Below are positions 10,573-52,288 of a DNA stretch of 57,718 nt, in pieces. The translations under genes were made by a program, and so were the position numbers. The stretch comes from Patescibacteria group bacterium (GTDB lineage Bacteria; Patescibacteriota; Doudnabacteria; UBA920): the NCBI GenBank assembly GCA_013387205.1, contig WARV01000007.1, forward strand, positions 1 to 57,718, in the 5' to 3' direction. Each line of letters opens with the position of its first letter. Position 1 is the stretch's first letter. Under the pieces are notes generated by a model. It was not told the origin of the DNA. It did no database searches and worked only from the letters and a program-made list of their open reading frames with translations.

Positions 10573-10602
10573 CCAAAAATAGAAATCGCCAATGTTTATG
10601 GG

Positions 10603-10642
10603 CAAATGAATACCTCAACCGTACGGTTGAGGTATTCATTTG
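10603..10642. repeat. Perfect 40-nt palindrome, CTCAACCGTACGGTTGAG family
   Basis: caaatgaatacctcaaccgt|acggttgaggtattcatttg. Confidence 0.85.
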
Positions 10643-11038
10643 CTTGATTTTATTGGGGAAAATAAAACATAAGACAAACGCGAGGAAATTTTGTAATTGC
10701 CGTTACAAGCTTCAAATGATATGATTCTTTTAAGGCTTATTATGAAAGGCCTGAAACCTGCCGCCAGCCCGCTACGGGTATGAGACCAGATAAAATGAGG
10801 AAGCGGAGCTTCCACTTTGATAAGGAAACTGCCCTGATGCTCCACTGCTTGCAGTGGAGTCAGTTTCATAATTTGCCAGATAAGAAGCCATGAAATATTT
10901 AAGCCATCATTTTGTATTAACTAAGGGATAATTTTTAAACTTGGTACGATAATGCCGGCAAACACGGTCCGATTTTAGTGCAAGTTTCGCCAAACTATTC
11001 AAATTAACCAGAGTGTTTAACAACAAGCTTTAAATAAA

Positions 11039-13458: not shown

Positions 13459-14682
13459 ATGATTACTAGCGATTTAATCTCCGAGACATATTGGGCGCTT
13501 TCCGGCAATAAAATCAGGTCGGCTTTGACAATGCTTGGAATAATTATCGGCATTAGTTCGGTTATTGCCATGGTTTCCATTGGGCAGGGTGCAAAAAATA
13601 ATATTGAACAGAGCATCCAGTCTGTCGGTTCGAACTTGATTATTGTCATGCCTGGCGCGCAGCGGGGAGTCGGCGTGCAGATTTCAAGCGGCCGCGGCAG
13701 CGCGCAGACTTTAACGCAGGAGGACGCTAATGCGATTTCAGGCAGCGTCAGCTTGGCCCAAGCCGTGGCGCCGGAACTGTCCCGAAGATATCAGGTGACA
13801 ACCAAAGGAAAAAATACCAACACCCAGGTGACTGGCACTGTGCCGCAGTATCTGGAAGTCAGGAATATCCAGATTGGGCAGGGTAGCTTTATCACCGACC
13901 AGCAGTCAAAGAGCGCGGCTAAAGTTGCGGTCCTCGGGCCAACCACGCGCGATGACTTGTTTGGGGCTAACGCCAACGCCATTGGCCAGGATGTAAAAAT
14001 CAACAATATGGAATTTAAGGTTATTGGCATAACCCAAGCCAAAGGCGGCAGCGGGTTTAGTAATCCCGATGACGCAGTGTATATTCCTCTGGCCACTGCG
14101 CAAAGGTATTTGGCAGGGGATACTTATGTCAGCGACATAAGCGTAAAAGCGCAAAGCCAGCAAGTCATGGCAACTGTCCAGCAGCAAATTACGGATTTGC
14201 TTTTGTCACGCCATCATATCAGCAATCCGCAGCTGGCTGATTTTAACGTCATCAACCAGGCTGATATTGTCGCGGCAGCAGGATCGGTTACTAATACTTT
14301 CACTTTGCTGTTGGCGTCCATCGCCGGCATTAGCTTGCTTGTAGGCGGGATAGGGATTATGAACATGATGCTGACTACTGTCACTGAGCGTACCAGGGAA
14401 ATTGGCCTTCGCAAAGCTATTGGCGCGGAGAGCGGCGATATTAACAGGCAGTTTTTGGCCGAGGCGGTAATGCTTACCTTTTTGGGCGGAGTTGCAGGGG
14501 TGTTGTTCGGCTGGGTAATGTCCCTGATAATTTCTCATTTTTCCAGCTTACAGACATCAATATCATTTTCTTCAATCCTTTTAGCTTTCGGAGTTTCCGC
14601 TACCATTGGCATAGTGTTTGGATATTACCCTGCCAGGCGCGCTTCCAAGCTTAATCCGATAGAGGCGTTGAGATACGAATAA
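13459..14682 (+). CDS. ABC transporter permease, MacB/FtsX type
   Basis: N-terminal TM, an extracytoplasmic domain of about 220 aa, three C-terminal TMs, and TERTREIGLRKAIGA. Starts 2 nt after the ATPase stop. Confidence 0.9.
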   Translation: MITSDLISETYWALSGNKIRSALTMLGIIIGISSVIAMVSIGQGAKNNIEQSIQSVGSNLIIVMPGAQRGVGVQISSGRGSAQTLTQEDANAISGSVSLAQAVAPELSRRYQVTTKGKNTNTQVTGTVPQYLEVRNIQIGQGSFITDQQSKSAAKVAVLGPTTRDDLFGANANAIGQDVKINNMEFKVIGITQAKGGSGFSNPDDAVYIPLATAQRYLAGDTYVSDISVKAQSQQVMATVQQQITDLLLSRHHISNPQLADFNVINQADIVAAAGSVTNTFTLLLASIAGISLLVGGIGIMNMMLTTVTERTREIGLRKAIGAESGDINRQFLAEAVMLTFLGGVAGVLFGWVMSLIISHFSSLQTSISFSSILLAFGVSATIGIVFGYYPARRASKLNPIEALRYE

Positions 14683-14694
14683 CTTCTACTATCT

Positions 14695-14807
14695 TCTACT
14701 AAATACTAAAAGGTACTAAATATACTAAATCACATCAAGTATACTTAATTGATACCACCGCTGGTATATAGCTTTAGTATATTTAGTATTAATTAGTATT
14801 TAGTAGA
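14695..14807. repeat. 113-nt MITE-like palindromic element (TCTACTAAATACTAAA arms), copy 1
   Basis: Left arm tctactaaatactaaaaggtactaaatatactaaa (14695-14729) pairs with the right arm at 14773-14807. It is homologous in inverted orientation to 52147-52258. Confidence 0.8.
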
Positions 14808-14856
14808 AAAAAATTTAATTAAAAGTTTAAATTTTTAAAATAATTAACAAAACAAT

Positions 14857-15312
14857 ATGCAAAAGAAAAACATCATCATCGGGTCAGTAATAATAATTTT
14901 AATCGCCGCCGGATCGTTTTATGGCGGAATGGCCTATGAAAAAAAGCAAGTAGCGTCGTCATCCAATACCAGGAATCTTTCCTCAGGCCAGCAAAGGCAA
15001 TTTGCGGGCAATGGAGCTATGATGTTCAGAAGCGGAAACGGACAGAATGCCGGATTTGCCAATGGCGAGGTTATTTCCAAAGACGACAAAGGCCTTACAA
15101 TTAAAATGCGCGATGGCAGCACCAAACTGGTTTTCTTTTCTTCGTCAACCAAATTCCAAAAATCCTCGGACGGTTCCGTATCTGACGTGGAAACCGGCAA
15201 AACTGTTTTGGTCACTGGTCAGGCAGGCAGCGATGGCAGCATAACCGCGCAAACCGTACAGATTGGCGACGTGCTTCGCCCAACTCCTCCTTCCGGCCAA
15301 CCGCAGCAATAA
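14857..15312 (+). CDS. Membrane-anchored secreted protein, DUF5666-like
   Basis: N-terminal TM IIIGSVIIILIAAGSFYGG, then GEVISKDDKGLTIKMRDGS..GKTVLVTGQAGSDGSITAQTVQI. Confidence 0.6.
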   Translation: MQKKNIIIGSVIIILIAAGSFYGGMAYEKKQVASSSNTRNLSSGQQRQFAGNGAMMFRSGNGQNAGFANGEVISKDDKGLTIKMRDGSTKLVFFSSSTKFQKSSDGSVSDVETGKTVLVTGQAGSDGSITAQTVQIGDVLRPTPPSGQPQQ

Positions 15313-15474
15313 TCTACAAATATTATTGACCAATCAACTAATGTAACGAATATTGCCAATGACAACTAATACTTGCTAAACAGGAATTAGTTGTCATTAG
15401 TATGGATTAGCAGATTGGTTAATTTATGGCTTTTATCAACGTCCTATGTTTTAGATAACATAACGACGAAGCTT

Positions 15475-15879
15475 ATGAAGAAAATAATATTTTTAGCCGC
15501 AGGCTTGCTGCTTTTGGCAGCGGCTTGCAATTCAAGCTATAATAGTAGTAATACTAATACCCAAACCCCTGCCTCCAGCAATTCATCTGCCACTGCAACC
15601 GGACAGATAAAACAGTTTACGATAACTGCGAAGAATTTTTCATATACTCCGAATGAAATAAAAGTGAAAAAAGGAGATACCGTGAAAATCACTTTGCAGA
15701 ACACGGAAGATTACCATGATTGGGTCTTGAACCAATATAACGTAAAAATCCCGGGCGTTAATGCTGGGAAAAGCGCAAGCGTGCAGTTTGTGGCTGATAA
15801 AGCCGGAACGTTTGAATTTTATTGTTCAATAAGCAATCATCGCCAGCTGGGCATGAAAGGTAATTTAATTGTGCAGTAA
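15475..15879 (+). CDS. Cupredoxin-like (type-1 copper) lipoprotein
   Basis: Signal plus lipobox LLLLAAAC. Candidate copper ligands are H in YHDW and C-x4-H-x4-M in YCSISNHRQLGM. ATG 15475 was preferred to the track start 15391. Confidence 0.7.
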   Translation: MKKIIFLAAGLLLLAAACNSSYNSSNTNTQTPASSNSSATATGQIKQFTITAKNFSYTPNEIKVKKGDTVKITLQNTEDYHDWVLNQYNVKIPGVNAGKSASVQFVADKAGTFEFYCSISNHRQLGMKGNLIVQ

Positions 15880-15892
15880 GTCATGCTAAAAA

Positions 15893-15918
15893 GCATCCCG
15901 TAAACCGGGATGCTTTTT
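15893..15918. terminator. Bidirectional hairpin terminator between convergent genes
   Basis: gcatcccg-taaac-cgggatgc, followed by ttttt. Confidence 0.7.
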
Positions 15919-15927
15919 GCTGATGTT

Positions 15928-16926
15928 TTACTTTCCGTCTTTTTTCACTATGTCGTAAATATCTTTGGAAATTTCAGCTACTCTGTCCTGTTGGGTTTTT
16001 AAATCCTGTCCTTTAGTCATCACGCACAGCACGTACGGATGGCCAGGGTAGTAAACTATTCCGCATTCATGGAATTGTTGCTCTGTAATTTGCCCGTTTT
16101 CTTCAATCTTGCGCTCGCCGAACTTGTGCGCTACTTCTACCTGTTGCGGCAGCCTGGCAGTTAGTCCCTGGTTGTAATCAATCCTGCTTAAAAGTTTTAA
16201 AGCGTATTCGGAATTTTCTGCCCCCAAATCCGACGCGTTGTAAAGCGTTTCCAAAAAGTTACTGTACATTTTTGGAGACACATAATTGCCCATGGCGATT
16301 TTTTCAATGGAATCGGGAAGGGTGATATCGTCTTCCGAAAAAGTTTTTTTCAGCAGTTCGGGATGCATCTGGTACAAGTTTTCTAAAGCGTTGTTGTCCG
16401 AGCTGATAATCATGGCTTCCAGCAAATCTTTTATGGTGTATGATTTTCCCGGTTCTATGGTGCTGGAAGGGGAAATATTTTCCAGCTTATTATAATCATT
16501 TCCCGGAACCGTAACCTGTTGGGACAAAAATCCGCTATTTTGTCCGGCGTATTCCAAATATCCGATGAGCATGGGAAGCTTTATTAAGCTTGCGGGGATG
16601 AAAGTGTCATCCTGGTTGTAGCCGGCAGAAGTATTATCGTTTAAGTCTTTGTAATAAACTGCGGTTTTAATGTTGCCGCTATTTTGTCCGAGATTGCTTA
16701 AATACCCCCTGATGTTTTGGCTCATTTTTTTATCTGCGCCGTCACTGTCTTGTATGCTGACTATAGGGTTTGTAAAAGTATAGTGGGTGCCTTTTTCCCT
16801 GATGATTCTGTAACTGGATTTTACTGACGGCCGCGGCGTGCGCTTAACGTTTGCCAAAAAGATGATCGCAGCAAATTCGCCCAAAATCACGAAGTAAAGG
16901 GCTTTGTTATTTAATATTTGGGGCAT
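15928..16926 (-). CDS. Serine hydrolase, class-A beta-lactamase / PBP-like
   Basis: N-terminal TM, SxxK (ASLIKLP), SDN (ISSDNNA), and a KTG-like HKFGE. Confidence 0.65.
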   Translation of the reverse strand: MPQILNNKALYFVILGEFAAIIFLANVKRTPRPSVKSSYRIIREKGTHYTFTNPIVSIQDSDGADKKMSQNIRGYLSNLGQNSGNIKTAVYYKDLNDNTSAGYNQDDTFIPASLIKLPMLIGYLEYAGQNSGFLSQQVTVPGNDYNKLENISPSSTIEPGKSYTIKDLLEAMIISSDNNALENLYQMHPELLKKTFSEDDITLPDSIEKIAMGNYVSPKMYSNFLETLYNASDLGAENSEYALKLLSRIDYNQGLTARLPQQVEVAHKFGERKIEENGQITEQQFHECGIVYYPGHPYVLCVMTKGQDLKTQQDRVAEISKDIYDIVKKDGK

Positions 16927-36056: not shown

Positions 36057-36063
36057 GGCAAAA

Positions 36064-36095
36064 CAAATGGCTCAACCGTACGGTTGAGCCATTTG
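36064..36095. repeat. Perfect 32-nt palindrome, CTCAACCGTACGGTTGAG family
   Basis: caaatggctcaaccgt|acggttgagccatttg. Confidence 0.85.
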
Positions 36096-36105
36096 TGGTA
36101 TCATT

Positions 36106-36188
36106 ATAACCCCTCCCAACTTCCCCTCTGCAAGGGGGGCTGCTAAGGTGCCTCTCTTCTAGTCATAGGAGGGATTAAGGGAGGTTAT
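36106..36188. repeat. GC-rich hairpin cassette (CCCCTCC / GGAGGG type)
   Basis: ataacccctccc ... gggaggttat termini with an inner cccctctgcaagggggg. It has the same flavour as the cassette inside argS. Confidence 0.6.
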
Positions 36189-36218
36189 TCCTTGATTCTA
36201 GATTCTAAATTTTTGATT

Positions 36219-37535: not shown

Positions 37536-37811
37536 ATTATTATTATACCACACTATGTTAAAATGACGGATAAAAATGAGGAAAATTAATTTAAATCTCA
37601 AATAACAAATACCAAATGACCAATTTAAATATCTAAAAAATGCAATAGTTGGTTATTGAAAATTTGACTTTCAGACTTTATTTTCCTGCCCGCCATAGCC
37701 TTTTCTTGTAAGTTTAGATTAACCTTGATTACCATCATGATTCACTAAGCCTATTTGATACTTAACAACAGGCCTTGGCAGGCGGGAAATTTGTCATTTG
37801 TTATTTGGTAC

Positions 37812-38357
37812 TTATTTACCGTATCTATTAAATAATTCTTCCAAAACAGCCTGGTATTGGCTGCGGATAGATTCGTCATGGCCGACTTCCAAGACTTCGT
37901 CGTTTAAGTTGGTTGCCGCCGAGGTCCAGTTGAAAGACCCGCTGGCATAACCTTTGTCAGTTACAATGGCTTTTATGTGCATAATGGCCAAATGGTCCTG
38001 TTCGTAAACCGGAATGCCGGCGTCCTTGAGTTCCTGGAAAATTTTTGTCTGCTGCTGTGTTCCTTTGTCCTGGTTCCTGTCCATTATCCCGACAACTTTC
38101 AGCCCGCGGTATTTGGCAGCGAGCAGCGCGTCTTTAATGTCAGTGCGGGTGAAAGTGTAAATCGCAAAATAAACAAACTTGTCGGCCTCCCTGGTCAGGT
38201 TGGTAATTTCTTTATTCAGCTCGCGATCTTGGTTGTAATAGACTTTAACCTGCCTTTGTCCTTCCGGTTTGTATTTGTAGGAATAATAAAACTGCCCCAG
38301 TAGGCCGATAAGGATGATGATCACCGTTATGTAGATGATATCTTTCTTGATTTTCAT
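37812..38357 (-). CDS. Phospholipase D-family protein (Nuc-like, single HKD)
   Basis: N-terminal TM and the HKD motif HIKAIVTDKGYASGSFNWT. Confidence 0.85.
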   Translation of the reverse strand: MKIKKDIIYITVIIILIGLLGQFYYSYKYKPEGQRQVKVYYNQDRELNKEITNLTREADKFVYFAIYTFTRTDIKDALLAAKYRGLKVVGIMDRNQDKGTQQQTKIFQELKDAGIPVYEQDHLAIMHIKAIVTDKGYASGSFNWTSAATNLNDEVLEVGHDESIRSQYQAVLEELFNRYGK

Positions 38358-38382
38358 TTTTATTTTAAATTATTCTATCGCG

Positions 38383-38507
38383 AACTCCCTCTGTCTCCCT
38401 CTTTAGATAAAGAGGGAGAACATACTAAGATAGTTTATCTGTTAATCATTTACAAATCTTTCTTAGTATGTCCCTTCTCTTTTCTAAAGAGAAGGACAGG
38501 ATGAGTT
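38383..38507. repeat. 125-nt MITE-like element (AACTCCCTCTGTCTCCCTCTTTAGA...GACAGGATGAGTT), copy 1
   Basis: Shares both ends, of about 45 nt and 37 nt, with 44967-45074. Internal hairpins tctccctcttt/aaagagggaga and ccttctcttt/aaagagaagg. CCGCCAGCTGGC lies nearby (38530-38541). Confidence 0.8.
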
Positions 38508-38546
38508 CTGGGTGGTTTGGGTGATTAGTCCGCCAGCTGGCAAGAA

Positions 38547-38978: not shown

Positions 38979-39073
38979 AATTACCTATATTTTAACATTT
39001 TTGCCGATCAAGGACAAAATAGCAATATGGCATTTATGTTATTTTGCCCAAGGGCAACTGCTCATCTACCCTA

Positions 39074-39231
39074 TGTCATTGCGAGGAATCAGGGCTTCAT
39101 CTGATTCCGAAGCAATCTGTCTTTGGGCGTCATCCTGAGCCTTTCAATTGCTAATGAAAGGTGAAGGATCTCTAAATAGATTGCAACGGTCCAATATTTT
39201 AACGCTAATAATATTGGACCTCGCAATGACA
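39074..39231. repeat. TGTCATTGCGAGG...CCTCGCAATGACA palindromic element, copy 1
   Basis: 13-nt terminal inverted repeats. Internal gaatcag..ctgattc, cgaagcaatc, gtcatcctgagcc and ccaatatt..aatattgg hairpins. Confidence 0.75.
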
Positions 39232-39275
39232 GTGAGTAGTTGCGCCTAAGGTGTTTCACTTTTTCCGCGGTTTTA

Positions 39276-39295: not shown

Positions 39296-41110
39296 ATGGA
39301 CAGTGAAACATCCCAAAAATACATATTGGATATTTTTTCTGAAGCAGCGGAAAACTTGGGTTTTAACGTGCAAAACGTCAGAACTGAAATTATCCAGCCA
39401 GATCTTAACTTTGGCGACTTTGCGACCAATGCGGCTTTGGTTTTGGCCAAGCAGCTTAAACGCAATCCTCAGGAAGTGGCGGTACAGTTTGCAGACGAGT
39501 TGAAAAACTTAGACCAGCAGGAAGTCTTTAGCGAAATTTACGCCGCAGCTGGCTTTATTAATTTCCGACTGTCGCAAAAAACCTTGCTTGCTAATTTATC
39601 CAGGATACTTTTGGAAAAAGACGGTTTCGGGTCGTCACAAAGGGGTAACGGCAAAACCATGGTCGTGGAATATTTCCAGAACAACGTGGCCAAGCCGCCT
39701 CACGTCGGGCATTTGCGCAGCGCAGTCATTGGTGACAGCATTTTAAGGGTGCTTAAGTCCCAAGGCTATAAGACTATTTCCGATACGCATATTGGCGACT
39801 GGGGCGTGCAGTTCGGCATTTTGATTTTTGCCTTTAAGGAATTTCTCAAGAACGGCGGCAAGAGAGAAAATATAGAAAAAGATCCGATTGTCGAACTGAA
39901 CAAGCTGTATGTGGAAATGTCTAATAATATAGAGCAGGACCCATCTTTGCGCGACAAGGGCAAGGAAGAGTTTGTGAGTCTTGAAAAAGGCGATACGGAA
40001 AATCGGGAATTGTGGCAGTGGTTTGTTAAAGAGTCGCTGGAAGATTTTGACAAATACCGCTCGTGGCTGGATGTTTTGCCGTTTAACCATAATTTGGGCG
40101 AGAGTTTTTACGAAGACAAAATGCCCGCGGTTTTGGAAGGCTTGAATGCCAAAGGTTTGATTACGACAGGCGAGACAGGCGAATCTTACGTTGATTTGGA
40201 AAGCTTTGGTTTGGGTCGGGCGATTTTGGTAAAGTCCGATGGCGGAACCACTTATCTTTTGCGCGATTTAGCCACTTATATTTTTCGCAAAGGCGAATTT
40301 GATTTTTACAAAAATATTTACGTGGTTGATAACCGCCAGAGTCATCACTTTAAGCAAATGTTCAAAGTAATGGAGCTTTTTGGTTATAAGGCTGCGCAAG
40401 ACAGCCTGCATGTGGATTTCGGGTTCATGAGCCTGCCCGAAGGAGCGATATCTACCAGGAAAGGCACGACTGTTAACTTGAAAGCCTGGATTGAAGAAGC
40501 GAATAAGGAAGCTTTAGAAATTATCAATGAAAAAAATCCGGAACTTGAAAATAAGGAAGCCATTGCTAAGCTGGTGGCTTTGGCAGCAATTAAGTATTTC
40601 GATTTGTCTCATAACCGCAAAACAGAAATTACTTTTACCTGGGAAAACGCGTTGTCGTTTGAAGGCAATACCGGTCCGTACATGCAGTATGCGCATGCGA
40701 GAATTTTCGGAATACTTCGAAAGTCAAATACCACCCCGTCCCGACTTGTCGGGACACCCCTCCTTTTCAAGGAGGGGAGAACTGCAGTCTCTCCTCCTAA
40801 TATAGGAGGAGTACCCGCCGATAAGGCGGGGGAGGTGGTATTGAATCAAAACGAACTTTTTGTTCTTCGTAAATTATACCAATTCCCGCAAGTATTAAAA
40901 CAAGTCTCTCAGGACTTTTTGCCTAATCTTCTGTGTAATTACTTGTTCGAACTGTCCCAGGCTTTTAATTCATTCTACGAATCATCTCCGGTCTTGCAGG
41001 AAAAAGATCCTCAATTACAATCATTCCGCTTAAATTTAATCACCGCCACCGCGCAGGTAATAAAGAATGGATTATACTTGCTCGGCATAGAAGCGCCGGA
41101 AGAAATGTAA
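39296..41110 (+). CDS. argS: Arginine--tRNA ligase, carrying an in-frame structured insertion
   Basis: HIGH-type PHVGHLRSAVIGD. Class-I core ..SDGGTTYLLRDLA.. and ..GNTGPYMQYAHARI... C-terminal anticodon-binding helices. Confidence 0.95.
   Translation: MDSETSQKYILDIFSEAAENLGFNVQNVRTEIIQPDLNFGDFATNAALVLAKQLKRNPQEVAVQFADELKNLDQQEVFSEIYAAAGFINFRLSQKTLLANLSRILLEKDGFGSSQRGNGKTMVVEYFQNNVAKPPHVGHLRSAVIGDSILRVLKSQGYKTISDTHIGDWGVQFGILIFAFKEFLKNGGKRENIEKDPIVELNKLYVEMSNNIEQDPSLRDKGKEEFVSLEKGDTENRELWQWFVKESLEDFDKYRSWLDVLPFNHNLGESFYEDKMPAVLEGLNAKGLITTGETGESYVDLESFGLGRAILVKSDGGTTYLLRDLATYIFRKGEFDFYKNIYVVDNRQSHHFKQMFKVMELFGYKAAQDSLHVDFGFMSLPEGAISTRKGTTVNLKAWIEEANKEALEIINEKNPELENKEAIAKLVALAAIKYFDLSHNRKTEITFTWENALSFEGNTGPYMQYAHARIFGILRKSNTTPSRLVGTPLLFKEGRTAVSPPNIGGVPADKAGEVVLNQNELFVLRKLYQFPQVLKQVSQDFLPNLLCNYLFELSQAFNSFYESSPVLQEKDPQLQSFRLNLITATAQVIKNGLYLLGIEAPEEM
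40728..40841. repeat. 114-nt four-hairpin palindromic cassette inside the argS reading frame
   Basis: Outer stem ataccacc / ggtggtat. Inner hairpins gtcccgac-tt-gtcgggac, cccctcc-ttttcaa-ggagggg, ctcctcc-taatata-ggaggag, cccgcc-gataa-ggcggg. Confidence 0.8.
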
Positions 41111-41767: not shown

Positions 41768-44700
41768 ATGGCAGAAAATAACCAGACACAACAAAAGAAT
41801 ACCGAAAAGAATAACGGCGCGCCGGATTTTAACAAGCTGGAGCAGGAAATTTTAAAGTTTTGGGACGAGAGCCATATTTTCGAAAAATCTTTGGAGCAGA
41901 ATAAGGACAAAGAGCCTTACATTTTTTATGATGGCCCCCCGTTTGCCACCGGCCTTCCTCACTACGGGCATATTTTGGCATCCACGATTAAAGATGCCAT
42001 TCCGCGCTACCAAACCATGAAAGGCCATTTCGTGCGCCGCCGCTGGGGCTGGGATTGCCACGGCCTGCCCATAGAAAATATCGTTGAACAGAATTTGAAA
42101 ATTTCCGGAAAAAAGCAGATTGAAGAAGTAGGGGTGGGAAGGTTCAATAAAGTTTGCCGCGACAATGTTTTGAATTTTGCTTCCGAGTGGGGCAAGACCG
42201 TGCGCCGCATGGGCCGCTGGGTGGAATTTGATAATTCCTACAAAACCATGGACACCACTTATATGGAAAGCGTGTGGTGGGCTTTAAAGCAAACCTGGGA
42301 CAAGGGGCTTATTTACGAAGACCGCAAGGTTTTGCTTTATTGCTCGCGCTGTGAAACGCCGATTTCCAATTTTGAAGTGGCCATGGATAATTCCTATCGC
42401 GATATTACCGAAGAATCCGTTTACGCCAAATTTAAAATGCTGCCAAAGCAGCGCATTGTCAACGATTTAACCAACGACAAGACTTACGCCTTAGCCTGGA
42501 CGACTACGCCTTGGACTTTGCCGGGTAATACTTCATTGAACATCGGCCCGGATATTTCTTATGTTTTAGTCGAATCCTCCTCCGCTGAAGCTACAGAGGA
42601 CAAGCAGCCAGAGCGCTACATTCTAGCAAAGGATCGTTTATCTATTCTGGAAGGACAATATGAGATAATAGCTGAGTTTTCCGCGCGTTCTTTAGAGGGA
42701 CTTCAGTACGAACCGCTGTATCCAGGAGTTATCCCGAACCCCGAAGGCCGGGCGCATAAAATTTATCTGGCAGATTTCGTCACGACAACAGATGGTACCG
42801 GCATTGTTCACAACGCTGCCATGTACGGGGAAGAAGATTATCAGCTGGCCAAGGAAAAAGGTCTGCCCCGCATAGACATGCTCGACCACAAAGGCCAGTA
42901 TATGGACATGGCGCCGGAAAATTTGCGCGGCAAGTTTTTTAAAGATGCGGACAAAATCGTATTGGCAGAGCTAAAAGACAAAGGCTTGGTCTATAAAACC
43001 GAACATTATCTGCACTCTTACCCGCACTGCTACCGCTGCGGCACGCCGCTTTTCTATAACGCTTTGCCTGCCTGGTTTATTGACATCCAAAAAATTAAGC
43101 CGCGCTTAAGGGAATTAAACCAGCAGCAGATTGAATGGTATCCCGAACATTTAAAGATGGGCCGCTTTGACAAGAGCATGGAGAGTGCGCCGGACTGGAA
43201 CATTTCCCGCAACCGCTATTGGGCCACGCCGCTGCCGTTTTGGAAGTGCAGCGCGGCCGATTGCAAGCATACTATGTGCATCGGCTCTGTAGAAGAGCTT
43301 ATAAAAAAATCGATTAACTTCTTAGAAGTATATCCGGTCGCAGAATTAAGAATTAAGAATTTAGAATTAAGCCAGGATTCAAAATTCATAATTCAAGATT
43401 CCGATAATATTGATCTCCACAAGCCTTACATTGACCAGATTAAGCTGAGATGTGAAAAGTGCGGCTCACAAATGAACCGCGTGCCGGAAGTCGTGGATTG
43501 CTGGGTGGAATCCGCTTCCATGCCTTTTGCCGAACTGCATTACCCGTTCGAGAATAAGGAATTGTTCGAGCAAAGGAAGACCGCGGATTTCGTGGCTGAA
43601 TACATTGCCCAAACCAGGGCCTGGTTTTACGTCATGCATGTCATCTCGGCTATTGTTTTTGACCGCGCGCCGTTTAAAAACGTGGTCACTACAGGAAATA
43701 TCTTGGCCGAAGACGGCAGCAAGATGTCCAAGTCCAAAAATAATTTTCCTGATCCGTGGATATTAATTGAAAAATATGGCATAGACGCCATCCGTTTTTA
43801 TTTGCTGTCCAGCCCGGTCATGAACGCCGACGACGTCAATTTCAGCGAAAAAGGCGTGCAGGAAATAAACCGCAAGGTTAACTTGCTTTTGTACAACGTC
43901 TGGAGTTTTTACCGCATGTACGAAAAACAAGCAGTAAACATCAAGTTTGTTGACTTAAAGCTGGACAACGTTCTTGATAAGTGGGTTATATCTAAGCTGG
44001 CACAAACAGCAAAACAAGTCACGTCAGATTTGGATTCCTACAACACTGTCCGCGCAACAAGGATATTAGTTGATTTCATCAACGACTTGTCCACGTGGTA
44101 TGTCAGGCGCAGCCGCGACCGCATTAAGGAAAATAACGAATCGTCCAAAGCCGCTTTGTCGGTTTTAGGTTTCGCGCTCGCCGAAGTTTCAAAACTTTTG
44201 GCGCCCTTTATGCCGTTCTTGTCAGATTTTATTTTTAGAGATATTACTGGCAAAGAATCCGTACATTTGGAAACCTGGACAGACTGGTCGGCAATATCTG
44301 TTGATGAAAAAGCGCTGGGCGAGATGGAAGTTGTCCGCGAAGCTGTTAGTATGGGATTGGCTTTAAGGAAAAATTCTTCAATGCCCGTAAGGCAGCCTTT
44401 GCGCGCCGCGGCTTTTGCATTGAAGCAAAAAGATAACCAGCTTTCGCCGGAACTAAACCAGTTGATAATGGAAGAGTTGAACGTCAAAGAAATTGACTTT
44501 AAATTGCTCGATAAAGACACCAGGCCGGAAAAATCAGCGGTCTTGCAGGGCTTGGGTAATATCTCGAACTTTTATTTGGACTTGATCATTACTCCGGAAT
44601 TGAGAATTGAAGGATTAGCTAGGGTTATGGAAAGGCAGATTCAGGATTTGCGCAAAAAGAGCAGTTTGAAAGTCGGGGAATTGGTTGACGTCTATTACAA

Positions 44701-44860
44701 CACCCAGGATCAGGAGCTGGAAGAAATTTTAACGACCATGGTTGACCGGAAAAAAACATTCATCAGCCAAATAAGCAGGAACTTGGAAGTGGAAGTTGAT
44801 TTTGAAGTCCAAAGCGAAGTTGACGGCAGGACCCTATGGTTAGGCTTAGTGAAAATTTAG
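41768..44860 (+). CDS. ileS: Isoleucine--tRNA ligase
   Basis: HIGH (PHYGHIL), KMSKS, editing-domain TTPWTLPGN, zinc knuckles CYRCGTP and CEKCGS. Confidence 0.95.
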   Translation: MAENNQTQQKNTEKNNGAPDFNKLEQEILKFWDESHIFEKSLEQNKDKEPYIFYDGPPFATGLPHYGHILASTIKDAIPRYQTMKGHFVRRRWGWDCHGLPIENIVEQNLKISGKKQIEEVGVGRFNKVCRDNVLNFASEWGKTVRRMGRWVEFDNSYKTMDTTYMESVWWALKQTWDKGLIYEDRKVLLYCSRCETPISNFEVAMDNSYRDITEESVYAKFKMLPKQRIVNDLTNDKTYALAWTTTPWTLPGNTSLNIGPDISYVLVESSSAEATEDKQPERYILAKDRLSILEGQYEIIAEFSARSLEGLQYEPLYPGVIPNPEGRAHKIYLADFVTTTDGTGIVHNAAMYGEEDYQLAKEKGLPRIDMLDHKGQYMDMAPENLRGKFFKDADKIVLAELKDKGLVYKTEHYLHSYPHCYRCGTPLFYNALPAWFIDIQKIKPRLRELNQQQIEWYPEHLKMGRFDKSMESAPDWNISRNRYWATPLPFWKCSAADCKHTMCIGSVEELIKKSINFLEVYPVAELRIKNLELSQDSKFIIQDSDNIDLHKPYIDQIKLRCEKCGSQMNRVPEVVDCWVESASMPFAELHYPFENKELFEQRKTADFVAEYIAQTRAWFYVMHVISAIVFDRAPFKNVVTTGNILAEDGSKMSKSKNNFPDPWILIEKYGIDAIRFYLLSSPVMNADDVNFSEKGVQEINRKVNLLLYNVWSFYRMYEKQAVNIKFVDLKLDNVLDKWVISKLAQTAKQVTSDLDSYNTVRATRILVDFINDLSTWYVRRSRDRIKENNESSKAALSVLGFALAEVSKLLAPFMPFLSDFIFRDITGKESVHLETWTDWSAISVDEKALGEMEVVREAVSMGLALRKNSSMPVRQPLRAAAFALKQKDNQLSPELNQLIMEELNVKEIDFKLLDKDTRPEKSAVLQGLGNISNFYLDLIITPELRIEGLARVMERQIQDLRKKSSLKVGELVDVYYNTQDQELEEILTTMVDRKKTFISQISRNLEVEVDFEVQSEVDGRTLWLGLVKI

Positions 44861-44966
44861 CAAATATTATTCACAAATAGGTTTGAGGAATTTCTAATTA
44901 TTCTAATTAATCTAATTTCCGCCAGCTGGCGGACTAAACAATTCCCAAATCCCAATTCCTAATACT

Positions 44967-45074
44967 AACTCCCTCTGTCTCCCTCTTTAGAAAAGAGGGA
45001 GAACATGCTAAGCTAGATTATAGCCTTGCTTTGTTGGTTCCTTCTCTTTTCTAAAGAGAAGGACAGGATGAGTT
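44967..45074. repeat. MITE-like element (AACTCCCTCTGTCTCCCTCTTTAGA...GACAGGATGAGTT), copy 2
   Basis: Same orientation and same ends as 38383-38507, with a different central segment. CCGCCAGCTGGCGG lies at 44919-44932. Confidence 0.8.
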
Positions 45075-45143
45075 AATAATAATTAGTACAATTAGGTCAA
45101 TTAGGAATTTTCTAGCCACAAGGCATAATTAATATACGGATTT

Positions 45144-45999: not shown

Positions 46000-47868
46000 A
46001 TGGAAAACCAAAATATGGAGCCAGGGAACTTAGATAATAACGAACCAGGCTTTACCAAAAAACAAATTGACCAGCCGATTCTAAATTCCGAACTTCGGGA
46101 CCAGCTGTCGCAGGAAGAACCAGCGGCAGAAAAAGTTTCTGCCGGTTTCAGCCTTAGCCAGTTTTATAAAGCCAATAAGTTTTACGCCTGGGCCATTGTT
46201 GTCGGCCTGGCAATTATCGCTATTTTGTCTTTTTTTGCGTTCAGGAAACAGCCGCAGCCAAAACCGACTGAAGCCAACGTTAAAGTCAGTATTGACGCGC
46301 CCCAGACCATAGCCAGCGGCGGCGACGTGGTTTACAGGATTAAAGTAGAAAACAACGACAGTCAAAAACTGGTCAATACCCAATTGGAACTGGTTTACCC
46401 GGATGGCGTGTCTTATATCAGTAGCGTACCCAAAGCGGAAAACCTTTCCGGCAGCTTATTTAGCCTTAAAGATTTAATTCCAGGGCAAAACGTGGTGATA
46501 ATCGTCAAGGCCAAAGCCACAGGCCAGATTAACGATTCAAAAAAGCTTGCCGCCAAACTGACTTACAGTCTCAGTAATTTTAATTCCACGTTTGCCAAGC
46601 AGGAAGAATATACCATAAGATTGGTGGCTTCCGATGTTTTGCTGGAATTGTCAGGCCCGACCCAGACCAATAATTCCCAGCTGATAATCTATAACTTGAA
46701 GTACCAGAATAATTCCAGCGATGACATAAAAAACGCGCGCATTAAAGTTTCTTATCCGGAAGGGTTCTCATACGCTTCGGCAGAGCCGCAACCGGACCAG
46801 GATAATAACACCTGGAATATAAGTTCGCTGGCCAAAGGCGGAGAGGGTAATATCCAGATCCAGGGAAGCTTTAAATCGGCAAGTCCGGGAGAATCCAAAA
46901 CCGCTACCGCGCAGTTTCTGGTGCTGGGGCAAACGGGGGAATATTTCACCCAAAGCATGTCTAGTTTTACCACGGCCATATCCAGCTTGCCGCTTTTGGT
47001 CACCCAGGAACTGGATAATAACAACACTTCCGGCGTGGTCAATCCTGGCGACAGCCTTACTTTTAAGGTTAAATACCAGAATAATACTGCCACAGCCGCA
47101 ACCGGCGTGAATATCTTGGCTACCATAGATTCCAAAGCGGTTGATCTTTCTTCCATCCAGGCAGACGGCGGGCAGGTGAATAACAACACCATATTATGGA
47201 ACGCTTCTTCGGTCAGCAAGTTGGAAAGCCTTTTGCCTAACGAGTCAGGGGAATTAAGTTTTACTTTGCAGCTGAAAAATCCCGCCACGCGCGATTCTTC
47301 CAAAAATTTGGCTGTAGTTTCCAGCATCAAAATAAAGTCCAACGAGTTTGATACTTATTTTCCGGGCAATGAGCTGTCTTTGAAAGTTTCCAGTCCGCTG
47401 TCGATTGCGGATGGAGTTATTTTTTCAAGCGGCAGTCTGCCGCCGCAGGTAGGCAAGCCAACGCAGTACAAAGTTGTTATCTCTTTAACTAATTCTACCA
47501 ACGATTACAGCGATGGCGTTTTGACAGCGTTTATCCCTTTGGGTGCAGGCGGATTCGTGGATAAAAGCTTTAATATGGCGGAGAGCTCTAAAGCGGAATA
47601 TGATTTTTCAACCGGGAAACTGACCTGGAACTTTGGTAGCCTCGCGGCGCACACCGGCAAATTCAGCCAGAGCCGGGCCCTGGAATTTAGCGTTAGGCTG
47701 AACCCTTCTTTGCCCCAGGTCGGGCAGTCGCCGGCTTTGGTTAAGGATATCAAGCTTTCAGCTAAGGATGTTTTTACCAAGCAAACAGTTGAGCAGTCAG
47801 CCGATAACTTGTCTACGTCCGATCTGCCGGGAGACCAGGGCTATAGCCAGGGGCAGGTGATTAGATAA
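46000..47868 (+). CDS. Membrane-anchored surface protein with DUF11/CARDB-like beta-sandwich repeats
   Basis: TM WAIVVGLAIIAILSFFAF. Repeats include VVYRIKVENNDSQKLVNTQLELVYPDGVSYIS, IIYNLKYQNNSSDDIKNARIKVSYPEGFSYAS and LTFKVKYQNNTATAATGVNILATID. Confidence 0.65.
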   Translation: MENQNMEPGNLDNNEPGFTKKQIDQPILNSELRDQLSQEEPAAEKVSAGFSLSQFYKANKFYAWAIVVGLAIIAILSFFAFRKQPQPKPTEANVKVSIDAPQTIASGGDVVYRIKVENNDSQKLVNTQLELVYPDGVSYISSVPKAENLSGSLFSLKDLIPGQNVVIIVKAKATGQINDSKKLAAKLTYSLSNFNSTFAKQEEYTIRLVASDVLLELSGPTQTNNSQLIIYNLKYQNNSSDDIKNARIKVSYPEGFSYASAEPQPDQDNNTWNISSLAKGGEGNIQIQGSFKSASPGESKTATAQFLVLGQTGEYFTQSMSSFTTAISSLPLLVTQELDNNNTSGVVNPGDSLTFKVKYQNNTATAATGVNILATIDSKAVDLSSIQADGGQVNNNTILWNASSVSKLESLLPNESGELSFTLQLKNPATRDSSKNLAVVSSIKIKSNEFDTYFPGNELSLKVSSPLSIADGVIFSSGSLPPQVGKPTQYKVVISLTNSTNDYSDGVLTAFIPLGAGGFVDKSFNMAESSKAEYDFSTGKLTWNFGSLAAHTGKFSQSRALEFSVRLNPSLPQVGQSPALVKDIKLSAKDVFTKQTVEQSADNLSTSDLPGDQGYSQGQVIR

Positions 47869-48108
47869 GAATTAAGAATCTAGAATATAGAATCTAGTAG
47901 TAATTAACAAGGGGTATCCTTGATCTAATCAAGGATACCCCTTGTATTATCTGATGAATGGCTCAACCGTAGGTTGAGCCATTTAAAATACCAATAAATA
48001 TTGATGTTTCTTGTACTAGCGTACTAGTACAGTGATATGCGTAACAGAAAGATAAACCCTATCCTTCGCGAAGGATAGGGCCCTATATTCTATCTTCTAT
48101 ATTCTAAT
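47867..48108. repeat. Nested palindromic intergenic superstructure between convergent genes
   Basis: Outer AT-rich arms aagaattaagaatctagaatatagaatctag / ctatattctatcttctatattctaatt. Inner perfect hairpins at 47908-47944 (caaggggtatccttgat..), 47957-47983 (CTCAACCGTAGGTTGAG family) and 48057-48080 (ccctatccttcg|cgaaggataggg). Confidence 0.75.
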
Positions 48109-49367: not shown

Positions 49368-49978
49368 GTAAGCTATAACCGTTACATGTGAGCTTTGGGG
49401 GTGGTAACCTATGGCAGTTTTTAAAAATCGTAATAAATCCAGGCACTATTTTTAATCGGCTCGGAGTTATAAATAGCCAATCTTTGTTATTTTACCCTGA
49501 TTTTATCTGAAAGCTTTGTCAGGTAAAAAATAGTGCTTGGATAAAAAAACTCAAAGGATGGGCGAACAAAAAATACCCTACAAAATAAGCCCAAACTTTA
49601 AGCTTGAAATTACCATAGATTATTAATAGTCTCCCTTTGCCTTGTTAAACCCTAATTTTTTGGTTTTTAACAAGCACGGAATTTATTTATCTTATTGTAG
49701 TTTACAAGCCTTAAGGGTATATAGCAAGACTTTAATCCACAATTGCTGATTTTATCCTTATTTTAAGGGAAAAATTGTAAATTATGGCTTTATAAAGCCA
49801 GATTTAACTAAATATCAAATTCCAAATAACAAATGTCAAACAATGCCTAAAATTACCAACATTCAATGATCAAAAGCTGCAATTGTTGGAAATTAGGTAT
49901 TAGGATTTATTTGGAACTTGTGATTTGATATTTGAAATTTTTACCTATGTTATAATTACTTGTGCAAACGTTATTTCT

Positions 49979-52141: not shown

Positions 52142-52146
52142 GATTC

Positions 52147-52258
52147 TCTACTAAATACGAAATAATACTAAATATACTAAAACAAATACTAGCATTGATA
52201 ACAATTAAGTATACTTATATATTTTTAGTATATTTAGTACCTTTTAGTATTTAGTAGA
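52147..52258. repeat. MITE-like palindromic element (TCTACTAAATA... arms), copy 2, inverted relative to copy 1
   Basis: The right arm tttagtatatttagtaccttttagtatttagtaga (52224-52258) is the exact reverse complement of 14695-14729. The centre shares caattaagtatactt with copy 1. Confidence 0.85.
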
Positions 52259-52288
52259 GAGATTTAATGGAAATTAATAACTATTTTT

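Follow-up and report, generated by a model that had tools for sequence, protein, structure and literature searches.

A palindromic hairpin doublet in frame within a Patescibacteria argS gene, probably a copy of a dispersed repeat family

How can a gene for an aminoacyl-tRNA synthetase hold, within its reading frame, a segment that is built of hairpins? The question is raised by argS on contig WARV01000007.1 of a Patescibacteria group bacterium (assembly GCA_013387205.1), analysed here as one stretch of 57,718 nucleotides that is referred to as the 57.7-kb window. A sequence-only reading of this window had described positions 40728-40841 as an outer stem closing over four GC-rich hairpins inside argS, and both the sequence and the folds confirm this anatomy. 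Taken together, the data make it probable that the 114 nt are a copy of a dispersed, non-autonomous family of palindromic repeats sitting in frame in argS, similar in kind to the Rickettsia palindromic elements (RPE) and to REPINs, the hairpin-forming doublets of repetitive extragenic palindromes (REPs). The host gene, the element and its modules are located as follows.

39296-41110, plus strand: argS, the host gene, encoding arginine--tRNA ligase of 604 aa (list of open reading frames (ORFs), Pfam, and AlphaFold2 model against structures of arginyl-tRNA synthetase (ArgRS))
40728-40841, plus strand: composite palindromic element of 114 nt, in frame, an inverted doublet of a two-hairpin unit (RNA and DNA folds, covariance model, half-versus-half identity)
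40728-40735, plus strand: 5' arm of the outer closing stem, ATACCACC, whose core ACCACC is constant across the family
40738-40755, plus strand: hairpin h1, variable stem GTCCCGAC/GTCGGGAC preceded by a CGTC head (compensatory pair changes among copies)
40757-40777, plus strand: hairpin h2, constant pyrimidine/purine stem CCCCTCCTT/AAGGAGGGG (invariant in 28 copies from several phyla)
40778-40790, plus strand: spacer between the half-units, with CTGCAG; other copies have an extra hairpin here
40791-40811, plus strand: hairpin h3, constant pyrimidine/purine stem CTCCTCCT/AGGAGGAG (pattern used for collection scans)
40814-40830, plus strand: hairpin h4, variable stem CCCGCC/GGCGGG (compensatory changes among copies)
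40834-40841, plus strand: 3' arm of the outer stem, GGTGGTAT

Folding of the 114 nt as RNA, one of the checks proposed with the sequence-only reading, gave a minimum free energy of -73.3 kcal/mol as compared to -42.2 +/- 4 kcal/mol in 200 shuffles with dinucleotides preserved (z = -7.8), none of which folded as stably. Folded as DNA, the element reaches -40.1 kcal/mol (z = -8.1). A scan for perfect GC-rich hairpins found four adjacent ones at this position only in the window. The outer stem ATACCACC/GGTGGTAT, which continues imperfectly out to 40724/40845, acts as a pair of terminal inverted repeats of the kind expected of a miniature transposable element with inverted repeats (MITE).

The internal architecture is that of a doublet. 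Comparison of the 5' half (outer arm, h1 and h2) with the reverse complement of the 3' half (h3, h4 and outer arm) revealed 77% identity (z = 7.9), and across all 28 full copies the same comparison gave a mean identity of 76% (mean z = 6.5). The unit is about 55 nt long and runs from ACCACC(Y)CC via a variable hairpin to a constant CCTCC.../...GGAGG hairpin. The full element is thereby shown to comprise two units in inverted, tail-to-tail arrangement, so that a strand can fold as a five-way junction of the outer stem and four hairpins; in the argS copy, three GGAGG and two CCTCC motifs are present. Single half-units exist apart from the doublets, both among matches to the h3 pattern and at metagenome loci matching an h1 pattern. 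"Permuted" copies are head-to-head dimers in which GGTGGT...ACCACC pairs directly as a hairpin, and given this logic of half-units and dimers, a rolling-circle (circular-permutation) origin of such copies is unneeded.

The argS product comprises the Pfam domains Arg_tRNA_synt_N, tRNA-synt_1d and DALR_1, and its best-matching ArgS proteins are those of Patescibacteria near Doudnabacteria. The segment had been counted as 38 codons; its length of 114 nt is indeed a multiple of three and the host frame stays open, whereas the peptide as quoted has 37 residues and the segment begins at codon position 2 of argS. The translation around the insert reads ..RKSN-TTPSRLVGTPLLFKEGRTAVSPPNIGGVPADKAGEVV-LNQNE.., which places it between the YAHARIFGILRK helix and the ELFVLRKLYQF helix of ArgS. 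The encoded stretch (TTPSRLVGTPLLFK...GEVV) is rich in Pro, Gly, Ser and Thr, and the variable loop with the element (40724-40852) has a G+C content of 54% as compared to 43% for the remainder of argS. Judging from the sequence, the argS copy is tolerated and presumably translated.

An AlphaFold2 model of ArgS, based on an alignment of 40 orthologues, reached a mean predicted local distance difference test (pLDDT) score of 82 and a predicted template modelling (pTM) score of 0.83. Compared with ArgRS crystal structures, template modelling (TM) scores of 0.80-0.86 were obtained, the fold being otherwise intact. Residues 480-506 score below 50 in pLDDT and are modelled as coil; on either side of them are the DALR-domain helices 459-476 and 518-540. 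Mapping onto the structure, a further check that had been proposed, thus locates the insert in a predicted disordered loop, and it is best read as a disordered surface loop of the anticodon-binding domain.

To what extent does the element occur elsewhere? A collection with one genome per species was scanned with the exact pattern of h3 plus three bases (TCTCCTCCTNNNNNAGGAGGAGTNCCC), which matched at least 119 genome stretches, often several per genome. Among the matches listed, the hosts are Bacteroidales and other Bacteroidota, Kapaibacteria, a Cyanobium metagenome-assembled genome (MAG) and many Patescibacteria (Paceibacterota, Nomurabacteria, Doudnabacteria, Saccharibacteria, Roizmanbacteria and Minisyncoccia); 32 of these 130 matches are full elements with the same module order, the remainder half-units or permuted copies. 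The h3 pattern was also found in 10 stretches of viral contigs, up to five per contig, and an h1-specific pattern matched 7 metagenome stretches. One MAG holds at least six copies, distributed over its argS/ileS contig and two other contigs.

The members share three constant pyrimidine/purine stems (ACCACC/GGTGGT, CCCCTCC/GGAGGGG and CTCCTCC/GGAGGAG) and two variable, covarying ones. In an alignment of 28 full copies (A2) with a consensus of 32 pairs, compensatory changes are found at 10 pairs, all of them in h1 or h4, at the pair that closes the loop in h2 and h3, or at the outer stem's innermost pair; the remaining pairs of h2, h3 and the outer stem are invariant or altered on one side only. 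Over 45 distinct sites, 94.7% of the stem pairs are Watson-Crick. The head before h1 is CGTC in 19, TGTC in three and CCTC in one of the 25 A2 copies that have h1 (together 23 of 25). A covariance model of the family, R1, scores the argS copy at 114.5 bits (E = 1.5e-27).

Conversely, the family did not surface in existing resources. No Rfam 15 family reached its gathering score on the argS segment, the top hit being an unrelated small RNA at 27 bits against a threshold of 49.5, and over 26 element loci the only matches at gathering score were four tRNA genes, none of them at the element. Strings of the element sequence matched only unrelated open-access papers, and in the literature on Patescibacteria or Bacteroidetes repeats nothing was found on this family, save a possible overlap with the motifs of PMC8040213 (see below). 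BLAST of a 120-nt segment against plasmids and phages gave no match, perhaps in part owing to the low-complexity filter. With a profile built from nine insert peptides, 462 candidates were obtained from 5.8 billion sequences and none at E <= 0.001, the query being too short for a database of this size.

The position inside a gene is not peculiar to argS. In Patescibacteria loci, 31 of the 52 R1 matches lie inside ORFs, in sense or antisense, counting only ORFs of 200 aa or more in which the match had 25 or more codons on either side. In-frame copies occur in at least 17 gene families of Patescibacteria and in both orientations. The hosts identified via Pfam are LepA, the NAD-dependent DNA ligase LigA, GatB, MnmA (two genomes), UvrB (two genomes), UvrA, TsaD, MiaA, KsgA, ATP synthase alpha/beta, the CCA-adding enzyme, an M50 peptidase, a methyltransferase, a type IIG restriction-modification enzyme, PGA_cap and IleS (three genomes). 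On a metagenome contig, a near-twin of the argS copy lies in an ORF that, judged by eye, resembles F1-ATPase alpha.

The Patescibacteria copies have 3.2 of six frames open as compared to 1.7 after shuffling, and 4.6 stop codons as compared to 7.5. In the intergenic Bacteroidota copies the number of open frames (0.58) is close to that after shuffling (0.65) and no stop depletion is seen. The depletion arises because the constant stems consist of a pyrimidine-only 5' arm and a purine-only 3' arm, neither of which can contain a stop in any frame, and this composition renders the Patescibacteria subfamily unusually compatible with coding sequence. Moreover, the spacer that is AT-rich in the Bacteroidota copies is GC-rich in the Patescibacteria copies. 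In one MnmA loop, a full copy lies in sense in one genome whereas a permuted copy lies in antisense in another, and a single insertion cannot be the ancestor of both. In IleS, the loop that follows EVYP is occupied by the GC element in locus L003, by a second palindromic family in L004 and by an AT-rich palindrome in the window.

A similar picture emerged for the loop in ArgS. The closest orthologue, P0002 (73-75% identity), lacks the element and has an ordinary 20-residue linker instead, and the neighbours of other carriers lack it as well; the proposed alignment check therefore found the block absent in close relatives. Five further orthologues (P0009, P0012, P0035, P0038 and P0047) have a related peptide, and their DNA is the same multi-hairpin element in the same loop. 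All six argS copies share the outer stem, h2 (CCCCTCC/GGAGGGG) and h3 (CTCCTCC/GGAGGAG) and differ in h1 and h4 by paired changes. The spacer is variable among them and at times holds a fifth hairpin, and the copy in L005 has an extra insertion within the h2 loop. The frame through h2 varies (GTPLL or GHPSL) and is back in register at h3; such shifts indicate that the nucleic acid is conserved and not the peptide. A conserved functional peptide was ruled out on account of the differing frames, the antisense insertions and the predicted disorder.

Across 120 ArgS orthologues, the loop contains this element in six, a second palindromic family (RHPERSEGSQ...LRSDALPQNDA; at the DNA level, a long CGTC-headed hairpin) in about eight, and AT-rich repeat-derived peptides (FQISNSKFQI...) in at least 14. 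The remaining orthologues have 14-37 loop residues, several of which are also repeat-like. Carriers of the GC element occupy at least four separate places in a neighbour-joining tree of ArgS, where their nearest neighbours (75%, 82%, 88% and 78% identity) are devoid of the element, some of them with other repeat-derived inserts. The argS copies fall into two subfamilies with the outer stems TACCACC...GGTGGTA and CTCCAACCACC...GGTGGTTGGAG (5' arm CTCCAACC...), and both are also found in ileS, gatB, the atpA-like ORF and intergenic DNA of other genomes; the outer stem of the L005 copy is chimeric. The sequence-only reading of a simple insertion is correct insofar as the block is absent in P0002. 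Compared with E. coli ArgRS, however, the element takes the place of most of the ancestral linker of about 20 aa, and in orthologues other repeat families reside there. We infer that the ArgS loop is a repeat sink that has been colonised repeatedly.

Apart from this loop, lineage-specific insertions were observed at two further positions of ArgS (columns 83-135 and 295-314 of alignment A1) in orthologues P0044, P0071, P0065, P0066, P0054 and P0056, e.g. SAGGGSQPKADQPLAGAK and KSFDGMGPNEKVAFDHVEEV; some look repeat-derived.

The notion of a mobile or recombinogenic element in a tolerated surface loop, put forward in the sequence-only reading, agrees with the lack of the block in P0002, the many unrelated sites and the predicted disorder of the loop. 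We propose that the element arrived, by insertion or by recombinational copying, in the variable loop that separates the first and second helices of the DALR domain, where it would have displaced most of the ancestral linker of about 20 residues. Its survival in argS may be explained by a length that is a multiple of three, a host frame free of stops and a disordered peptide that spares the fold; no function for argS would be required of it. Recurrence in one loop could reflect that selection leaves few permissive loops. Existing palindromes probably attract new ones, either by insertion in or beside hairpins or by gene conversion between copies; nested palindromes are common, as seen in the terminator-like stems of Bacteroidota, the h2-loop insert of L005 and the region upstream of argS in the window. 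As to movement, the likeliest route would be single-stranded hairpin DNA handled in trans by a Y1 enzyme of the IS200/IS605 type, similar to REP-associated tyrosine transposases (RAYT), or by another host enzyme; alternatively, recombination may suffice. The copies would thus spread as non-autonomous elements. Units lie in the spacers of a Mu-like viral contig, so (pro)phages carry the unit and offer a route between hosts.

Several observations weigh against this interpretation. The available 57.7 kb hold one canonical copy, and the multi-copy status is extrapolated from related genomes. Translation of the insert is deduced from the kept frame and stop-codon conservation. When the ORFs within about 4 kb of the 119 loci were clustered, no transposase or RAYT recurred, the top clusters being ABC transporters, kinases and similar common housekeeping families; Pfam analysis of the element-dense Mu-like viral contig likewise returned phage structural genes and no transposase. 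Among the copies, no clear target-site duplication or target motif was found and no parent insertion sequence (IS) was seen. A possible 5-nt direct repeat, TCAAA, flanks the argS copy, with nothing consistent at other copies. Furthermore, G.T mismatches outnumber A.C mismatches by 24 to 12 over the 45 sites, a weak hint of tolerance at the RNA level that is superfluous to the model. Element positions are slightly more conserved than the flanking coding DNA (0.89 versus 0.69, window versus L001), and the shared site in six orthologues together with the perfect stems could mean an old insertion kept by selection.

The latter alternative holds that the insertion was inherited vertically because the folded mRNA or the encoded loop serves ArgRS, for example by ribosome pausing at the boundary of the catalytic and anticodon-binding regions, by mRNA stability or by contact with a partner. 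It would account for the same site and orientation in all six orthologues, for stems that are all perfect and differ between orthologues by compensatory changes, for element positions at least as conserved as the flanks, and for the location at a domain boundary. The G.T excess would fit as well, but it is not significant, and the asymmetry is too weak to argue for selection on RNA; it does not decide the matter. Against it stands the scattered distribution of carriers, whose relatives at 75-88% identity lack the element or have unrelated repeats in the loop. The same subfamily variants in ileS, gatB, the atpA-like ORF and intergenic DNA of other genomes imply that the apparent covariation in argS reflects different source copies and not change within argS. 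As the reading frame differs between copies and the peptide is predicted to be disordered, we consider such a selected insertion unlikely.

A second alternative, which the sequence-only reading had raised, is a cis-regulatory RNA specific to argS, such as a mimic of a tRNA or an operator that would let ArgRS or the ribosome control the translation of argS. The very stable structure (-73 kcal/mol), a multi-branched shape that loosely recalls a cloverleaf, and GGAGG/CCTCC motifs resembling Shine-Dalgarno and anti-Shine-Dalgarno sequences lend it some appeal. ARAGORN, however, finds no tRNA-like gene, which disposes of a tRNA-like or tmRNA structure as a candidate, and no Rfam family is found at the element, be it above the gathering score or convincingly below. 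Unrelated gene families, at least 17 of them, harbour the same element, as does intergenic DNA in other phyla, and the majority of argS orthologues do without it. Being so widespread among unrelated genes and so patchy among argS orthologues, it is very unlikely to be an argS regulator.

Patescibacteria are known for insertions in their rRNA genes. This precedent, and the sharp bounds and strong structure of the insert, could suggest an intervening sequence that is absent from the mature protein owing to RNA processing and ligation, translational bypassing or protein splicing. An excised element would escape constraint on frame and stops, yet the frame is kept and no stop in the host frame occurs in the six argS copies or in any other host gene examined, despite insertions and deletions. 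No ribozyme or intron family matches, and 38 codons are far too short for an intein, so that this possibility is highly improbable. Repeats can mislead assemblers, but a repeat collapsed into argS by assembly or binning is a negligible prospect, as assemblies made independently (ENA, Logan and JGI) place the element in frame at one and the same codon position of argS, with syntenic smpB-argS-ileS surroundings, the ORF is uninterrupted, and both flanks align to orthologues.

With a dispersed palindromic repeat thus retained as the probable explanation, the other palindromes of the window can be placed beside it. Counting copies had been proposed as a check; many were found in related genomes, but none that is canonical besides the argS copy in the window, where sensitive blastn with the element returned no further sequence copy. 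Three weak relatives without h1 and h4 were detected by the covariance model only.

44959-45082, strand not assigned: intergenic distant relative, an AT-shifted two-hairpin cassette downstream of ileS (R1 26.3 bits, E = 4.5e-5)
38382-38526, strand not assigned: intergenic distant relative of the same subfamily as 44959-45082 (R1 16.7 bits, E = 0.012)
36101-36193, strand not assigned: intergenic distant relative, AT-shifted, the cassette cited in the sequence-only reading (R1 13.9 bits, E = 0.06)

The last of these had been said, as 36106-36188, to have the same construction as the argS segment. A distant relationship stands, but with 14-26 bits as compared to 114.5, and with h1 and h4 missing, sameness does not. 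Further palindromes of the window include an AT-rich, imperfect one inside ileS (41768-44860) at 43343-43404, GAATTAAGAATTAAGAATTTAGAATTAAGCC...GGATTCAAAATTCATAATTCAAGATTC, which is in frame, encodes ELRIKNLELSQDSKFIIQDS and folds as RNA with z = -3.35. The gap between smpB and argS (39040-39250) holds nested palindromes of the second family, TGTCATTGCGAGG...CCTCGCAATGACA around CGTCATCCTGAGC...GAAGGATCTC; these hairpins are headed by CGTC or TGTC and are the same as those that fill the ArgS loop of other orthologues, e.g. P0053. AT-rich inverted repeats of several families were noted at 14684-14808, 52145-52260, 37592-37814, 49810-49933 and 47865-48108. Their arms are 25-38 nt long and 80-89% complementary (e.g. 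TTCTACTAAATACTAAAAGGTACTAAATATACTAAA), and to judge by sequence they are probably further palindromic repeat families of the source genome. Two perfect palindromes, 10602-10643 and 36063-36096, have a common core CTCAACCGTACGGTTGAG and look like a repeated terminator-type hairpin.

Some loci outside the window merit separate mention. The Bacteroidota copies are about 130-150 nt long, intergenic and located inside terminator-like outer stems. In the Bacteroidales loci L012, L042, L101, L108, L113 and others, the arms of another conserved palindrome, AAGAGGCTGTCTCAAAAG...CTTTTGAGACAGCCTCTT, enclose full elements; this palindrome looks like a terminator hairpin, so that the elements would sit in the loop of another hairpin. 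On the opposite strand, h3 has its purine arm, AGGAGGAGA, 2-5 nt upstream of the ATG at an apparent gene start in L013, L024 (Kapaibacterium) and several loci of Patescibacteria, and some intergenic half-units may double as sequestered Shine-Dalgarno sites. The IMG/VR contigs L137, L138, L140, L141 and L143-L145 (58-63% G+C) carry single half-units AAAAACTCTCCTCCTTTTCAAGGAGGAGTCCCCGCC..GGCGGGGGAGGTGGTT about every 3.5 kb, often preceded by a GTCGGCATGGGAATGCCGAC-CTAC hairpin that is GTAG-tagged on the opposite strand; in L137 the half-units occupy intergenic spacers of a Mu-like capsid and tail module. In UvrB of L037 and L053 (70% identical), element copies are found at different sites, with an unrelated low-complexity segment of L053 at the L037 site. 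In L001 (MAG MFD03726.bin.1.241), ileS is broken into six called ORFs over 13645-16622, with an element copy at 15225-15401; the split could be a long-read frameshift error in G-runs or a real disruption by the element.

A broader proposal is more tentative. It is possible, though we would not favour it at present, that the copies belong to an undescribed, still active and horizontally spreading superfamily of hairpin doublets in Bacteroidota, Patescibacteria, Kapaibacteria and (pro)phages, with a Patescibacteria lineage that has evolved compatibility with coding sequence through pyrimidine/purine stems and a GC-rich spacer that keep most of the six frames open, a preference for existing palindromes, and landing-pad loops in ArgRS, IleRS, MnmA, UvrB and others that are overwritten repeatedly. 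If this were true, the insertions by which Patescibacteria proteins are marked would have in such repeats a major source that has gone unrecognised.

For Rickettsia, palindromic repeats lying in frame within essential genes are a textbook oddity, and the same phenomenon at scale in Patescibacteria would make them general instead of one lineage's curiosity. The recurrent hot-spot loops involve tRNA synthetases, repair proteins and translation factors. There are practical consequences, too: element segments inflate and scramble alignments of marker proteins, intergenic copies give spurious "hypothetical proteins", and the inserts can be mistaken for lineage-specific functional insertions. Covariance model R1 provides a direct means to mask the elements or take a census of them. 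Two questions become testable, namely how hairpin repeats spread without a dedicated transposase, a problem shared with REPs tagged by CGTC, and whether palindromes target palindromes.

Among the closest known systems are the RPE, reportedly described by Ogata et al. in 2000 and 2002 and by Claverie & Ogata in 2003 as "selfish DNA in protein-coding genes". Like these, the present elements are palindromic, measure roughly 100-150 nt and occur in many copies per genome, as seen here in related genomes; both are intergenic and also in frame inside essential genes, and in both the encoded segment lies in permissive surface regions with no function needed. To our knowledge, no dedicated transposase is known for RPE, nor for the present family. 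The hosts differ, being free-living or episymbiotic Patescibacteria and Bacteroidota here and not Rickettsiales. So does the anatomy, which is an inverted doublet with a five-way junction and with constant pyrimidine/purine stems beside variable, covarying ones. Moreover, the present family spans several phyla and phage-like contigs, and different repeat families take turns in the same protein loops. RPE end in CGTC (PMC3733652), and h1 has CGTC before it. We regard the element as RPE-like in the sense of a functional class, expect no relationship in sequence, and claim no membership in the RPE sequence families (RPE-1 to RPE-10).

REPs, together with their composites known as bacterial interspersed mosaic elements (BIMEs) and REPINs, provide a structural counterpart. 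Common to both are short GC-rich hairpin units that are found singly or paired head-to-head or tail-to-tail, a doublet that folds into a larger hairpin, and a non-autonomous nature; where the unit occurs in GC-rich viral contigs, it adjoins GTAG-tagged hairpins (CTAC on the strand shown). With two inverted hairpin units and a short spacer, the argS copy has the makeup of a REPIN. The unit, however, consists of two hairpins and about 55 nt instead of one hairpin of 20-40 nt, and neither a cognate RAYT nor a recurrent neighbour was detected within about 4 kb of the 119 loci or in the element-dense viral contig. The head of h1 is CGTC, TGTC or CCTC and not GTAG, which is restricted to neighbouring hairpins in GC-rich viral contigs. 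Classical REPs are mostly extragenic, whereas most Patescibacteria copies sampled here are intragenic.

CGTC-tagged REPs offer a further comparison. This class has the head variants TGTC and CCTC and includes the RPE of Rickettsia (Di Nocera et al. 2013, PMC3733652); it occurs in Bacteroidetes and Chlorobi, sometimes inside genes and without a dedicated transposase, and its definition comprises an 8-9 bp stem with A-T at positions one and two, a 4-5 nt loop and a CCA tail that is unpaired (PMC3733652). The same head and variants precede h1 in 23 of 25 copies, and the loop is of 4-5 nt. In the argS copy, h1 has a stem of 7-8 bp, a 4-nt loop, no A-T start and an ACC tail, while Bacteroidota copies (CGTC-ATGACCC...) do begin with A-T. 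Here the h1 stem takes in part of the head, its first pairs forming between GTC and GAC, ACC(CC) stands in place of a CCA tail, and three further modules accompany the CGTC hairpin in the composite. With the other class features partly present, the resemblance in sequence may be taken as a lead, not a classification.

The sequence-only reading had labelled the element a protein-coding MITE. Its inverted ends and in-frame position fit that label, and MITEs found within ORFs, such as the Correia repeat enclosed elements (CREE) of Neisseria and those reviewed in PMC10969869, are likewise small, non-autonomous, bounded by inverted ends and able to fold as RNA. The anatomy, however, is that of a REPIN, BIME or RPE, i.e. 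a hairpin doublet in place of terminal inverted repeats flanking unrelated DNA, and neither a target-site duplication nor a transposase nor a parent IS with the same termini was found. Palindromic intergenic motifs of 80-132 bp, mostly from Bacteroidetes and predicted to be terminator-like, have been reported by Fremin & Bhatt (2021, PMC8040213). Compared by description only, these recall the intergenic Bacteroidota copies of about 130-150 nt with terminator-like outer stems; nothing is said there on in-frame copies or on Patescibacteria. In summary, the kind of phenomenon, RPEs and REPs inside genes, is already known. Apparently undescribed are the modular family that crosses phyla, its coding-compatible lineage in Patescibacteria, and the serial occupation of the same essential-protein loops.

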